A DNA stretch of 26,954 bases from an uncultured Flavobacteriia bacterium (GCA_903930085.1 CAIYXD010000181.1:1-26954), one strand, 5' to 3'. Counted from the first letter of the stretch, positions 17,297-21,384 are shown. Program-made: numbers and translations. Notes: generated by a model from the sequence alone, not told the origin.

Positions 17297-17707
17297 ATGG
17301 AACCTTTTGATGTTGTTGCGGCGGTAATCCGTTTCCAACATAAAATATTATGCGTGCAGCGCGGGAAGGGAAATCATCCTTATTTGGCGTATAAATATGA
17401 ATTTCCGGGCGGCAAACTTGAACCAGGAGAAACCGAAGAAAACGCGATTATTAGAGAAATAAAAGAAGAATTGAATTTGGAAATCTCGGTTGAAAAAAAG
17501 TTTCTATCGGTTCAACATGCGTATACAGACATAACGATAACGCTCCATAGTTTTCTTTGCAGCTGCGAAAATCCTGCGCTTACACTTACTGAACATTTGA
17601 ATTACAAATGGCTTTCAATTGGCGAATTGAAGCAACTGGAATGGGCAGCAGCAGATGAACCAATCGTTCGGAAATTGGAAGAAATGGAAATCAGCGAATT
17701 ATCTTAG
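17297..17707 (+). CDS. MutT-like (deoxy)nucleoside triphosphate pyrophosphohydrolase, NUDIX family
   Basis: VVAAVI, YEFPGGKLEPGETEENAIIREIKEEL NUDIX box, LTEH..YKW, WAAADEPIV. Confidence 0.92.
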   Translation: MEPFDVVAAVIRFQHKILCVQRGKGNHPYLAYKYEFPGGKLEPGETEENAIIREIKEELNLEISVEKKFLSVQHAYTDITITLHSFLCSCENPALTLTEHLNYKWLSIGELKQLEWAAADEPIVRKLEEMEISELS

Positions 17708-17888
17708 AACTGCTTTTTTGTTCGGATTAACCATTCAAATATCGTAACGGCTTATGTTGCTATTAAGGGTTTCGCGCCAAGCGAAGAAGTCGAATTTTAA
17801 AGTTAAAATATTAAACTTCGGTATTGCCTTCTACTACTATTTCTTTTACTTTTTTCAAAAGCTAAAAAAGACAGAAAGTATTTTTTTT

Positions 17889-17914
17889 AACGCAAAGGCG
17901 CAGAGGGCGCAAAG
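17889..17914. repeat. Short CGCAAAG-type tandem repeat resembling a dispersed Bacteroidota intergenic repeat
   Basis: AACGCAAAGGCGCAGAGGGCGCAAAG: three CGCA(A/G)AG units, GC-rich within AT-rich DNA. Family assignment is from memory. Confidence 0.4.
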
Positions 17915-18082
17915 GTAGAATTTTCTATTATTGGCATTGGGAAGGTTTGTTGGCGAGGTAGATTATTTGGCTTCAAGATTGAAAACTGTAAGATGATTTC
18001 GAATATAAAATTAAGAGAAGATGCCGCAGCACAAGACAGCAGCGTAGCGGGGGTTATTCTTTTCCGAAAAAGCAGAATAATG

Positions 18083-18096
18083 GTGACACAAATCAA
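18083..18096. promoter_or_regulatory. Crp/Fnr-type box upstream of the CBS gene
   Basis: GTGAC-ACAA-ATCAA versus the Fnr consensus TTGAT-N4-ATCAA; 89 nt upstream of ATG 18186; 12/14 identical to the box at 20773. Confidence 0.55.
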
Positions 18097-18185
18097 TTCT
18101 TTCTATGACGCATTCGATTTTGTTTCATTTCAAATGGCTGTTTCTTTACACTAGATAAACAATATAGAATTTCAAAAATTATACG

Positions 18186-18695
18186 ATGAAAGTAAAAAAT
18201 GTAATGACTGCACATTCGGTGAAATTTTGCACCAAAGATGCAAACCTTCAAGAAGTGGCAAAAAAGATGAAAGTGAATAATTGCGGAGCACTTCCAGTGG
18301 TGGACGAAGACAATAAAGTTGTGGGAATAATAACCGACCGAGATATTTGTCTTTCCATTTCTAAGAGATCGATTATTCCAGCGGGAGATCGAAAAGTGAA
18401 AGATGCGATGACGAAAAAAATTGTTTCCGTGCACGGGAGCGATGAGATTTCAGTTGCTTACCAGCAAATGCGTAAAAACAAAGTTGGAAGGTTACCGGTT
18501 GTAGATGCGAAAGGAAGACTGGAAGGAATTGTTTCGTTGCACAAACTAATAAACGAAGCGGTAAGACGCGGTAAAAACGAGTTAGGCGAACCATCCGCTT
18601 CTGGAGAAAATTTAATCAAGACCATTCAAGCAGTTACAAATCGCTACAACAAAAAGGAGTTGAAGAAAAAATCAAAATTACTTTCAACTATCTAA
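18186..18695 (+). CDS. Tandem CBS-domain protein (Hrp1/Rv2626c-like)
   Basis: MKVKNVMT, NNCGALPVVDEDNKVVGIITDRDI, KVKDAMT, KVGRLPVVDAKGRLEGIVSL; Lys-rich tail. Confidence 0.93.
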   Translation: MKVKNVMTAHSVKFCTKDANLQEVAKKMKVNNCGALPVVDEDNKVVGIITDRDICLSISKRSIIPAGDRKVKDAMTKKIVSVHGSDEISVAYQQMRKNKVGRLPVVDAKGRLEGIVSLHKLINEAVRRGKNELGEPSASGENLIKTIQAVTNRYNKKELKKKSKLLSTI

Positions 18696-18716
18696 AAATA
18701 AAAACAAAAAAAGAAG

Positions 18717-18749
18717 AAAGGAGTTTACGAAAGTATGTCTCCTTTTTTT
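18717..18749 (+). terminator. Imperfect intrinsic terminator between the CBS and baeRF genes
   Basis: AAAGGAG...TAC-GAAA-GTA...CTCCTTT stem with an internal mismatch and bulge, GAAA loop, T7 run. Confidence 0.6.
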
Positions 18750-18796
18750 ATCCACTTTACTACCATTAGTTGCGCTTAACCTCAAAAATTCGACAC

Positions 18797-19936
18797 ATGA
18801 ATAATCCAAAAATAGACCAAATTCTTTCCCATAAGAACGAAAATCAGTGCATCACAATTCTATTTCCAACACACAGGACTTCGCCCGAACGCAGAAAAGA
18901 TGCGCTGTTGTTTAGCAATTTAATAGAAGAAACAAAAAACCTATTGCAACTAATCGACCATACAGAAGCACATAATAAAAAAATAGTTTTAAAAGAATTG
19001 GATGCCTATTTGAAAATAATAGATTTCACACATTCCGAAGACGGCATTGGAATTTACATTTCACCAACGTTTTCTGAATTGATTTATTTCCCTTTTGAAG
19101 TGGAACAAAAAGTTCAGATTGACACAACATTCTACACGCGTGAATTACGCTATTTTCAGCAGACACAGATAGACTATGCGATTGTTGCGTTGAGTCAAAA
19201 ACACGTGAATATCTATTTGGCACATGGACCTAAAATCCAACTGGTGCACAACGATGATTTTCCGCTCGACTATTCCGAAGAATATGAATATACCAAACCG
19301 AGTAAAATCAGTTCTCATGGTAGTATTGTACTGAAACAATATGAGAAAGAAAAATCAACGATCGAAGATGTTCGTCGGATAGATTTCTTCAAACATGCGG
19401 ATAAATTATTCGATAAATATCCGGAATTGAATTTACCTTTAATAGTGGTTGGAGAGGAAAAAGAAGTCGCTGATTTTATCGCACTTTCAAAACATGCAAA
19501 AAATGTAATTGGAAAGCTGCATTCTAATTTGAATTTCGACGCCATCCATCTTTTGGGAGATCAAGCATGGGAAGAAGTGCAACGCAACAGAAGAATTGAA
19601 AACGAAGCAAAAATCAAAAATTTATGGGAATTAATTGGGAACGAAATGGTTGCAATTGGCATTCTGGATGTTTGGAGAACGACTAAAGCAGGAAATTGTT
19701 TGGAATTATATGTGGAAAAGGATTTTGCAAAAGTTGGCTATGTTTCTAAAGACGGACAAACTTTAAAATTGATATATTCAGAACAAACTAAAAATTTCCT
19801 TCGCGTAAATGATATGGTGGAAAAGATTATTGAGTTGGTTTTGGAAAAGAACGGAAAAGTAGTATTTGTTGCGAATGGAAAATTGAAGGATTTCGACGGA
19901 ATCGCCTTGAAACTTCGCTATCCCGATCTCGGATAA
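18797..19936 (+). CDS. Bacterial archaeo-eukaryotic release factor homologue (baeRF3-like; Balon-type ribosome hibernation factor candidate)
   Basis: CITILFPTHRTSPERRKDALLFSNLIEE, DGIGIYISP, FPFEVEQKVQIDTTFYTREL, YAIVALSQKHVNIY, DFPLDY, FFKHADK, LIVVG, LEKNGKVVFV...LKDFDGIALKLRY. No GGQ motif. Start moved from TTG 18770 to ATG 18797. Confidence 0.82.
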   Translation: MNNPKIDQILSHKNENQCITILFPTHRTSPERRKDALLFSNLIEETKNLLQLIDHTEAHNKKIVLKELDAYLKIIDFTHSEDGIGIYISPTFSELIYFPFEVEQKVQIDTTFYTRELRYFQQTQIDYAIVALSQKHVNIYLAHGPKIQLVHNDDFPLDYSEEYEYTKPSKISSHGSIVLKQYEKEKSTIEDVRRIDFFKHADKLFDKYPELNLPLIVVGEEKEVADFIALSKHAKNVIGKLHSNLNFDAIHLLGDQAWEEVQRNRRIENEAKIKNLWELIGNEMVAIGILDVWRTTKAGNCLELYVEKDFAKVGYVSKDGQTLKLIYSEQTKNFLRVNDMVEKIIELVLEKNGKVVFVANGKLKDFDGIALKLRYPDLG

Positions 19937-19986
19937 AACTGCCAAAACAGAATTATTCCTTAGTTTAAAGAAGAAATAAAGCATAA

Positions 19987-20024
19987 AAAAACACCTTCGC
20001 AAAATAATATACGAAGGTGTTTTT
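19987..20024. terminator. Bidirectional terminator shared by the baeRF and BON genes
   Basis: AAAAACACCTTCG / CGAAGGTGTTTTT 13-bp inverted repeat between convergent genes. Confidence 0.9.
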
Positions 20025-20038
20025 AGTTTGAAAGCGAA

Positions 20039-20707
20039 TTAGTAAGAATATACTTCGGTATCAATCATCAATTTATTTTCTACTTCTGTTACGCCAGGAG
20101 CTAAATAAGCAGCACGTTCCGCATCCTTTTTCTCCACGAAAGATCTAACTTTTCCAGATAAAATAACTTTTGTCCCCTCCGATGCAATCAGAATGTTTTC
20201 AGAATCCAGTGTTGCGCTTCGGTGAAATGCAGCAAAGATTTTATTTTTGACATCTGCGGTTTTAAGTTTTGGTGCAAGTTTGATATTGTTGCTAATTCCA
20301 ACCACACCTTCTAAATTTTCGACAGAACTTTTAGAGTAAACACGTTGAAAATCCCAATCTACTTGACCATCCAATGTAACCCATCCCTTTTCTACTTTAA
20401 CTTGTACTTTATCTTCTGGAATGGAAGAATGCCATTTTAAAGCGTTCAACACTGCAGAAGCAATTTCAGCATCAGTTTTTTTTCCGTGTTCGGTTAATTT
20501 CACTATAATCTCCTGCGCTACTGCCTTCACGCCAAGTACTTTTTTTGCTGCGTGTTCCGCTTCCAATTTTCTACTGTAGGTGTCCACTACTCCGGAAAGT
20601 GTTACCACACTGTTTTTCACTGCAACACCAATTTCATTCGAATGCTGCACCAGCTCCCAACGAAGTTCTTCCATCACATCTTTTTGAATTTCTGCATCTG
20701 TTCTCAT
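20039..20707 (-). CDS. BON domain protein (three BON repeats, OsmY-like), no signal peptide
   Basis: MRTDAEIQKDVMEELRWE; VTLSGVV...AAKKVLGVKAV; VTLDGQVDWDFQR...LEGVVGISNNI; VILSGKVRS..EK..AERAAYLAPGVTEVENKL. Confidence 0.94.
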   Translation of the reverse strand: MRTDAEIQKDVMEELRWELVQHSNEIGVAVKNSVVTLSGVVDTYSRKLEAEHAAKKVLGVKAVAQEIIVKLTEHGKKTDAEIASAVLNALKWHSSIPEDKVQVKVEKGWVTLDGQVDWDFQRVYSKSSVENLEGVVGISNNIKLAPKLKTADVKNKIFAAFHRSATLDSENILIASEGTKVILSGKVRSFVEKKDAERAAYLAPGVTEVENKLMIDTEVYSY

Positions 20708-20772
20708 GTTCTTTGTTTTTTTTATAGATTAATACTTACACACAAAGAAACAGGGAAACTACTTTTTTGGAG

Positions 20773-20786
20773 GTGATACACATCAA
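20773..20786. promoter_or_regulatory. Crp/Fnr-type box upstream of the BON gene
   Basis: Reads TTGAT-GTGT-ATCAC on the minus strand, one mismatch to the Fnr consensus; 65 nt upstream of ATG 20707; a -7-like TTTCTTTG lies at 20743-20750. Confidence 0.6.
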
Positions 20787-20882
20787 AGAAAACATTGATT
20801 TTTGCAATGAAAAAAGACTTCTATTTTTCAGGATTAGAAAACTTCAAAAGTCACCCGGTAAAATGAAATGCGAATAAATCTG

Positions 20883-20890
20883 TATATTTG
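20883..20890 (+). promoter_or_regulatory. Sigma-A -7 element (TATATTTG) for the CYTH gene
   Basis: Exact TAnnTTTG 44 nt upstream of ATG 20935. Confidence 0.45.
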
Positions 20891-20934
20891 ATTTCTCTCG
20901 AAAGAATTCGGAAAAAAAGGCGAAAAATCAGAAA

Positions 20935-21384
20935 ATGGAAATCGAACGTAAATTTTTAGTGGATAAAAAAACCTGGGATCTTGTTGAAAAACCGAAGCCA
21001 AAAAAAATTATTCAAGCCTATTTATTTCGATCTCCCGAAAAAACCATTCGTGTTCGAACCAAGGGCGATAAAGGTTTTTTAACGATAAAAGGGAAAACAA
21101 CTGGAATTTCAAGAAGCGAGTTTGAATATGAAATTCCGTTGGAAGAAGCGGAACAGCTCATATCTGAATTTGCAGACAAAGTAATTCTTAAAAACCGCTA
21201 TGAAATCAAGGTTGGCGATCACCTTTGGGAAATCGATGATTTTCATGGTAATTTGAAAGGTTTACTCCTTGCGGAAATAGAATTAAGCTTCGAAGCGGAA
21301 GAATTTGAATTACCTGTTTGGGCAACAACCGATGTTTCTACCGACGCAAATTACTATAATGCGCAATTAATCGAACGGTGCTGA
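20935..21384 (+). CDS. CYTH domain protein (triphosphate tunnel metalloenzyme)
   Basis: MEIERKFLV (EXEXK), IRVRTKGDKGFLTIKG, RSEFEYEIP, KNRYEI, WEIDDFHG, LLLAEIEL. Confidence 0.93.
   Translation: MEIERKFLVDKKTWDLVEKPKPKKIIQAYLFRSPEKTIRVRTKGDKGFLTIKGKTTGISRSEFEYEIPLEEAEQLISEFADKVILKNRYEIKVGDHLWEIDDFHGNLKGLLLAEIELSFEAEEFELPVWATTDVSTDANYYNAQLIERC

Follow-up and report, generated by a model that had tools for sequence, protein, structure and literature searches.

A CBS-Balon gene pair with FNR-type operator boxes, a probable node of a receiver-Crp stress regulon in freshwater Crocinitomicaceae

The ribosome hibernation factor Balon is the Psychrobacter urativorans protein AOC03_06830, and its mycobacterial homologues are Rv2629 and Msmeg1130 (Helena-Bueno et al. 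2024, PMC10901736). Published examples already include Balon operons with neighbours of the OsmY type and a mycobacterial Balon beside the CBS protein Hrp1 (PMC10901736); the accessible part of the supplementary files of that paper makes no mention of CBS, Hrp1 or BON. In archaea, hibernation factors with CBS modules were described in 2025-2026, namely HibA/AHA (PMC13324472, PMC13728122), Sri (PMC13454478) and Dri, and the CBS module of HibA prefers AMP over ADP and ADP over ATP (PMC13324472, PMC13728122). Here, we analysed a locus at positions 18083-20786 of a 27-kb stretch of DNA (26,954 nt; hereafter the window) from an uncultured Flavobacteriia bacterium, which encodes a CBS-pair protein, a Balon homologue and a protein with three BON domains. 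The host belongs to a genus of freshwater Crocinitomicaceae, and its close relatives are Crocinitomicaceae metagenome-assembled genomes from lakes. We know of no account of how bacteria decide when to deploy Balon, which was described only in 2024.

The locus is a lineage-specific version of this known type of dormancy operon, and we consider it probable that it is a node in a small regulon for stress or dormancy, controlled by a regulator that joins a receiver to a Crp-type module (REC-Crp). What is new is that CBS and Balon form a strict bicistron with a hairpin inside it, that this bicistron is placed in the receiver-Crp regulon proposed for this freshwater genus, and that the CBS protein is close to the CBS modules of archaeal hibernation factors. 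An earlier interpretation made from the DNA alone (the sequence-only reading) had placed CBS and baeRF genes on the + strand, a three-BON gene on the - strand, a common bidirectional terminator between them and a Crp/Fnr box at each outer end. All of these features were confirmed: the three genes are intact open reading frames, the terminator lies between the convergent Balon and BON stop codons, and the boxes are real and conserved in orthologous promoters. Alignment with homologues placed the Balon start at the ATG at 18797 and not at the TTG at 18770. The features are, in order:

18083-18096, no strand: operator box 1, GTGACACAAATCAA, an FNR-type palindrome with 8 of 10 consensus positions
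18119-18122, + strand: TTTG upstream of the CBS gene, -33-like, read from the sequence as resembling a Bacteroidota-type promoter
18141-18148, + strand: -7-like element TTTCTTTA upstream of the CBS gene, read from the sequence, with fixed spacing from the box in 12 diverged CBS promoters
18186-18695, + strand: CBS-pair (Bateman) gene, 169 aa, an open reading frame with two Pfam CBS domains (E 1.1e-30)
18713-18749, + strand: terminator-like hairpin between CBS and Balon (GGAG...CUCC plus U-run), a candidate leaky terminator or attenuator, similar in 8 of 9 lineages
18797-19936, + strand: gene for a homologue of Balon-family (baeRF3) hibernation factors, 379 aa, from Pfam baeRF_family3, NCBIfam and AlphaFold/Foldseek
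19987-20024, no strand: bidirectional intrinsic terminator common to Balon and BON, a 15-pair stem with a T-run on either strand
20039-20707, - strand: gene for a three-BON-domain protein, 222 aa, with three Pfam BON domains (E 3e-37)
20743-20750, - strand: -7-like element TTTCTTTG of the BON gene, read from the sequence, with fixed spacing from the box in 5 BON promoters
20773-20786, no strand: operator box 2, GTGATACACATCAA, an FNR-type palindrome with 9 of 10 consensus positions

Family profiles and a structural model identify the product of 18797-19936 as a Balon homologue, which is predicted to bind the A site of the ribosome. The protein matches Pfam PF18845 (baeRF_family3) with an E-value of 2e-21 and 77.5 bits against a cut-off of 31.5, and it matches NCBIfam NF052287 (Balon, AOC03_06830 family) from end to end with an E-value of 7e-68 and 229.7 bits, the equivalog cut-off being 330. 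Its sole solved relative by sequence is Balon itself (8rd8_B; phmmer E 2.8e-17, residues 13-375 against 11-369), at about 21% identity. An AlphaFold model built on 36 Bacteroidota homologues had a predicted local distance difference test (pLDDT) of 86.5, and the best Foldseek matches of this model were the Balon entries 8rdw, 8rdv and 8rd8 with template modelling (TM) scores of 0.76-0.80 (for 8rdw_B, E 5e-27 and TM 0.78/0.80), followed by Msmeg1130 at 0.71-0.73, with aRF1/eRF1 reaching only about 0.5. The window protein and all 36 aligned homologues from Bacteroidota lack both the GGQ motif of peptide release and the NIKS motif of stop-codon recognition. A Balon-like aeRF1 fold lacking GGQ, as proposed by the sequence-only reading, is supported.

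The protein thus shares with Balon the three-domain aeRF1-like fold, the lack of GGQ and NIKS, and a neighbourhood of stress genes. Unlike in Balon, the column aligned to the HP dipeptide of THREHP is occupied by S29-P30; Pro is found in this column in 30 of the 36 sequences and His in only 9 (the motif was mapped by alignment alone, and the Balon paper states no residue numbers). A further difference is the loop of the M domain, residues 164-183, which is 14 residues longer than in the other Bacteroidota homologues. Its clade-specific sequence HGSxxLKQxEKEK, including the Lys-Gln pair, is strongly conserved in the genus and lies where aeRF1 has GGQ and Balon its lasso loop; the loop was modelled at low confidence. 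The locus also differs from described Balon loci in that a CBS gene invariably precedes Balon in the operon, with a conserved hairpin in between, and that RaiA does not adjoin Balon: the single short gene of the HPF type is found at another place in the genome. With an isoelectric point (pI) of 5.95, the Balon homologue is acidic, and it diverges faster than its neighbours, with 31-46% identity between genus members compared with 48-62% for CBS and 57-77% for BON.

The CBS-Balon bicistron with its internal hairpin was strict within the genus. Of 24 genus genomes, 9 have Balon; 8 of these 9 also have CBS and 8 have REC-Crp, and neither gene occurs in the other 15. At each of the eight genus loci with enough flank, the CBS gene immediately precedes Balon on the same strand, and the same adjacency recurs in metagenome loci and in abundant lake contigs. 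BON was found in 4 of the 24 genomes, that is, in 4 of the 9 with Balon, and it is convergent in some only. Balon-like genes are widespread in Bacteroidota (112 of 401 genomes), and no CBS, BON or regulator gene was found within 1.5 kb at the 29 best Balon loci outside the genus. Of the trio whose conservation the sequence-only reading had made a test of itself, the CBS-Balon pair is conserved at the genus loci with enough flank, and BON is optional.

Three arrangements of the locus were observed. One consists of the REC-Crp regulator, CBS, Balon, an S-adenosylmethionine (SAM) methyltransferase and a TerB-like protein of about 140 aa. Another has CBS, Balon and convergent BON, followed by an FtsH paralogue, the methyltransferase, the TerB-like gene and the regulator. 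The third is the form in the window, flanked by NUDIX and CYTH genes. In the genome of the window, contig C29 carries the REC-Crp regulator, then a box, then a second CBS gene cut by the contig end; contig C117 carries the methyltransferase with its own box after an FtsH gene; and in a sister genome the TerB-like gene follows the second CBS gene. The idea of a self-contained module did not survive this comparison, as the regulon is dispersed over several contigs. A nitroreductase-family gene recurs beside the CBS-Balon module of several lineages (L038:7404-8126, L087:8758-9480, L088:8333-8974), and not beside the copy in the window.

The two boxes are the only matches to TGAY-N4-RTCA in the window. 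Because 1.69 matches are expected by chance, the count alone is not significant, and the evidence for the boxes is their placement. In 13 of 15 loci, the CBS start is preceded at 89-110 nt by a box that agrees with TTGAT-N4-ATCAA at 8 or more of its 10 positions, and orthologous boxes reach up to 10 of 10; by background alone, any one 22-nt slot would contain a box of such quality with a probability of about 0.006. The Bacteroidota -7 element is TAnnTTTG. TTTG or TTTA was found exactly 48 nt past the box in 12 of 12 distinct CBS promoters, several of which also have a -33-like TTTG at +23 from the box, and TTTG was found exactly 26 nt past the box in 5 BON promoters of three diverged sequence types. 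The -7 element of BON lies about 29.5 bp from the centre of its box, a class II-like distance; the CBS box is set a further 22 bp (two helical turns) upstream, a class I-like distance. No box was found upstream of Balon itself, and a box of its own accompanies the methyltransferase gene only at loci where this gene does not directly follow Balon and forms a separate transcription unit. In two such units (L036:8986-9200, L040:6988-7180), the box is followed by a small open reading frame for a hydrophobic peptide of about 35 aa, and a second conserved element, GTC-TTGACAGC-GTCAC, stands after the box.

We scanned the whole genome with a position weight matrix plus spacing, which is more specific than a simple consensus scan. 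BON box 2 was the top site, and three of the five best intergenic matches belong to BON, CBS and the second CBS gene. The other two lie at an outer-membrane beta-barrel gene (C485:4688-5547, L016) and at the gene for a 127-aa helical protein of no known family (C89:1034-1548, L020), both of which are candidates for additional regulon members. The simple scan with TTGAT-N4-ATCAA gave 12 exact matches against 2 for a control pattern, and no clear wider regulon emerged from it because most exact matches are in open reading frames or before housekeeping genes. An exact box at a hybrid kinase on contig C314 was judged a chance match because it lies inside an open reading frame.

The regulator linked to the module (C29:467-1528) has the Pfam architecture REC + cNMP_binding + HTH_Crp_2. 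Its receiver has the motifs LILCDILMP, FITS and FKPF with the canonical Asp, Thr/Ser and Lys. The protein contains no Cys cluster, and its Crp part is 32-38% identical to the FNR-like protein of the genome. The gene lies immediately upstream of the box and CBS in the variant loci and on C29, and the one Balon-bearing genome in which it is missing is 69% complete. Because a receiver-Crp/Fnr hybrid, and not an Fe-S FNR, is what tracks the module, the input would be phosphorylation, and this orphan response regulator, not FNR proper, is the likely box binder. The sequence-only reading had favoured an Fnr-type regulator over DosR. The operator is an FNR-type palindrome, the output of the linked regulator is not of the LuxR type, and the protein whose gene follows the module is not the Fe-S FNR. 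A literature search on receiver-Crp regulators found nothing relevant.

Orthologues of REC-Crp with 37-48% identity occur in other Flavobacteriales families, where the operons (L079-L084) comprise a FixL-like haem-PAS kinase, REC-Crp and sometimes DoxX and tandem Usp genes. The kinase and regulator genes overlap or abut there (translationally coupled), and the best box within about 9 kb lies directly after the regulator gene in 4 of 6 such loci. The top PDB matches of the kinase PAS domain are FixL (1.5e-14) and the DosP haem domains, with the proximal His aligned. Within the genus, a full-length orthologue of this kinase was found only in genome G001; searches of the genome of the window (G000), G017 and G005 returned only generic kinase-core matches, and for G000, which is 95% complete, absence of the kinase is not proven. 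Low oxygen, proposed earlier as the signal, was not borne out at this locus, since FixL-like kinases accompany the regulator in other families only. It may be suggested by analogy, the kinase not having been found in this genome.

Two described regulatory systems resemble this arrangement. The DosS/DosT-DosR regulon of Mycobacterium tuberculosis (Rv2626c Hrp1, Rv2629, Usp, nitroreductases) likewise combines a CBS-pair protein with a Balon homologue, and here, too, a two-component response regulator is the likely driver; Usp and nitroreductase genes recur around the orthologous regulators and modules here. Unlike in the DosR regulon, the output module is of the Crp/Fnr type and not of the LuxR type, the operator is an FNR-type palindrome and not a Dos box, and Hrp1 and the CBS protein are not orthologues (51 bits for Hrp1 versus 113 for HibA). 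The earlier description of the locus as a counterpart of part of the Dos regulon is therefore apt for gene content and not for the regulator, and because the lineages are unrelated, the likeness is one of analogy and not of common descent. The FixL-FixJ-FixK cascade of rhizobia and Caulobacter, with its anaerobox, shares the TTGAT-N4-ATCAA operator at class II-like and class I-like distances; the co-transcribed kinases of the other families, with PAS domains best matching FixL and DosP haem domains, are a further likeness. In contrast to that cascade, a single protein here joins a FixJ-like receiver and a FixK/FNR-like DNA-binding module, the regulator is an orphan in the genus, and the targets are hibernation and stress genes instead of oxidases or nitrogen fixation genes.

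The CBS protein consists of a single Bateman module with two CBS domains, and its 12 orthologues share 48-93% identity. The canonical ribose-binding pattern of CBS domains is G-h-h-T-x-x-D; the first domain keeps it (GIITDRD), and the second reads GIVSLHK. A GENLxKT segment is conserved in the tail C-terminal to the Bateman module. The protein is basic, with a pI of 9.9 and a net charge of +16 (family median pI 9.4), and Cys15, Cys33 and Cys55 are invariant among the 12 orthologues; three invariant cysteines together with such a strong basic charge are unusual for a stand-alone CBS-pair protein. When the family profile was searched against the PDB, the best match was HibA (9sr9_H; 8.9e-32, 113 bits), followed by Sri (9znf_4; 1e-27, 100 bits), with MJ1225 (96 bits) and other archaeal CBS proteins of no assigned role scoring nearly as high. 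Plant CBSX proteins, which act on thioredoxins, are also among the solved relatives. Because Rv2626c/Hrp1 (1xkf/1y5h) ranks only about 27th (9.6e-13, 51 bits), the term Hrp1-like used in the sequence-only reading is valid at the domain level only: the single Bateman module stands, and no specific kinship was found. By profile score, the protein is closer to archaeal hibernation-factor CBS modules than to Hrp1.

HibA/AHA, Sri and Dri resemble the present case in the genetic link between a CBS module and a hibernation factor, and the protein here is basic. The present protein differs from them in having one Bateman module (two CBS domains) in place of four CBS domains, so that a homodimer would be needed for mimicry; it is encoded by a separate gene, not fused, its partner is Balon and not HPF/RaiA, and its binding to the ribosome is hypothetical. 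Co-folding of two copies of CBS with Balon gave a score of 0.00, which counts neither for nor against binding.

The BON protein has tandem BON domains and would be a stress-regulon member, as is the periplasmic chaperone OsmY of E. coli, whose structure 8rjx is its sole solved relative by sequence. Unlike OsmY, it has three BON domains and scores 60.6 bits with the OsmY model NF007858, for which the cut-off is 174. Its N-terminus, MRTDAEIQKDVMEELRWEL (MRTDAEIQKD...), contains no hydrophobic segment, the homologues share the same start, and no in-frame start lies upstream. Because it lacks a signal peptide and an upstream start and falls well under the OsmY cut-off, the protein is probably cytoplasmic.

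The loops and stem extensions of the hairpin between CBS and Balon vary among the lineages that have it. The hairpin is not a known RNA family, as Rfam gave only sub-threshold chance matches over 17600-21100. Four lake metatranscriptome runs yielded short contigs over parts of CBS, Balon and BON and none over the flanks 17700-18143 or 20808-21000, and one contig spans 18519-18794, through the hairpin. These contigs weakly support expression in situ and read-through of the hairpin, because DNA can be present in RNA libraries and the strains behind the contigs are related ones.

Taken together, these observations suggest the following mechanism. In the REC-Crp protein, a phosphorylated receiver would take the place of the Fe-S arm of an FNR-like protein, and the phosphorylated regulator would activate a handful of promoters through TTGAT-N4-ATCAA-type boxes at activator distance. 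CBS and then Balon would be transcribed, with the leaky terminator setting or gating the CBS:Balon ratio, while BON, the second CBS protein, the SAM methyltransferase and the TerB-like protein would be made in the same response. Balon would occupy the ribosomal A site and park ribosomes, like solved Balon with EF-Tu-GDP; the basic CBS protein may read the adenylate or redox state; and the BON protein, having no signal peptide, could serve as a cytoplasmic protectant.

Several points weigh against this interpretation. The Balon homologue stays under the NCBIfam equivalog cut-off (229.7 vs 330) and appears by alignment to have Ser in place of His in the HP dipeptide; the FixL-like kinase was not found in this genome or in two relatives; the RNA-library contigs are short and may contain DNA; and the hairpin that separates CBS from Balon might terminate transcription completely. 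Moreover, the genome encodes a Cys-rich FNR/FnrL-like protein of 229 aa (C356:2743-3429; Cys 11, 14, 26, 39, 110 and 113), which matches the Fnr and FnrL models and whose E..IR recognition helix is similar to that of REC-Crp, so that it could bind the same boxes. The boxes would then be true FNR sites, and oxygen would be sensed directly by the Fe-S protein without a phosphorelay. The cross-lineage consensus TTGAT-N4-ATCAA is indeed the classical FNR consensus, the N-terminal Cys 11, 14 and 26 together with Cys 110 and 113 fit an Fe-S protein of this kind, and a box-like palindrome, CTGATTAATATCAT, lies about 54 nt upstream of the start of the gene itself (C356:2743-3496, L026). We nevertheless regard direct control by FNR as unlikely: the gene is core to the genus regardless of the module (20 of 24 genomes, including genomes without it), it was not found in G016, which is 100% complete and keeps CBS-Balon, BON and the boxes, and it never adjoins the module, whereas REC-Crp adjoins it or co-occurs with it. 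Still less credible is that the aeRF1-like protein is an active rescue or release factor using its clade-specific M-domain loop near the peptidyl-transferase centre. The long, genus-conserved loop with its Lys-Gln pair is placed suitably for such a role, but GGQ is absent from all 36 homologues, the fold is closest to Balon and not to aRF1, the loop was modelled with low confidence, and the solved homologues Rv2629 and Msmeg1130 block translation without peptide release (PMC10901736); we consider this role highly improbable.

The part played by the CBS protein is the most debatable element. Family members with at least about 50% identity precede Balon. Distant homologues in other Bacteroidota (42-47% identity) adjoin HSP20/Lon or Usp genes, and one at 49% identity adjoins a thioredoxin gene, with Balon not nearby in either case, which weighs against a dedicated partnership: CBS may be a general small stress protein, merely a co-regulated neighbour acting directly on neither Balon nor the ribosome, with the hairpin a true terminator and Balon expression depending mainly on read-through or on its own weak promoter. 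The conserved terminator-like hairpin separating the two genes and the thioredoxin-acting plant CBSX proteins among the solved relatives fit this alternative, which we take seriously and judge to fall somewhat short of even odds. It sits poorly with the strict adjacency in all genus Balon loci and in metagenome relatives across several rearrangements, with the lack of a box upstream of Balon itself, with the RNA-library contig running from CBS through the hairpin to the Balon start, and with the independent recurrence of CBS-Balon neighbourhoods in mycobacteria (PMC10901736). A 283-aa gene that follows the distant CBS homologues was considered as a hidden Balon relative and rejected (hhalign probability 0.3%). 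At the other extreme, the basic CBS dimer might be a ribosome-associated factor, a bacterial counterpart of the four-CBS modules of HibA, Sri and Dri, that works with Balon to couple the parking of ribosomes, or their release, to the adenylate or redox state, with the leaky terminator setting the ratio. This extension is speculative and, in our estimate, less likely even than control by FNR; if it were true, a CBS module combined with an A-site or mRNA-channel blocker would be a recurrent hibernation design in both prokaryotic domains.

On the reading as a node of a REC-Crp regulon, the locus would be a compact circuit that comprises an operator, a candidate phospho-controlled FNR-like regulator, an invariant CBS partner and an attenuator-like hairpin. 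The host bacteria abound in fresh water, and lake RNA libraries contain all three genes. Should CBS modulate Balon or bind ribosomes, bacterial hibernation would be linked to the archaeal CBS-based factors of 2025-2026, and energy charge would be tied directly, at the molecular level, to ribosome parking. Should it do neither, the locus would be a clean example of a widespread, apparently unpublished Bacteroidota receiver-Crp stress regulon that recruits lineage-specific cargo.

The surroundings of the module showed some further features. In the window, a NUDIX gene (17297-17707) lies upstream of box 1, and a CYTH (triphosphate tunnel) gene (20935-21384) is divergent from BON, 149 nt from box 2; both flanks are kept in the closest relatives only (L030, L031). 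On contig C29, a transfer-messenger RNA (tmRNA) gene with the tag DNTSYALAA lies just upstream of REC-Crp (C29:1811-3222, L086), and the 3' end of the tmRNA gene is overlapped by a large serine recombinase gene, as if an island had integrated at ssrA on the far side.

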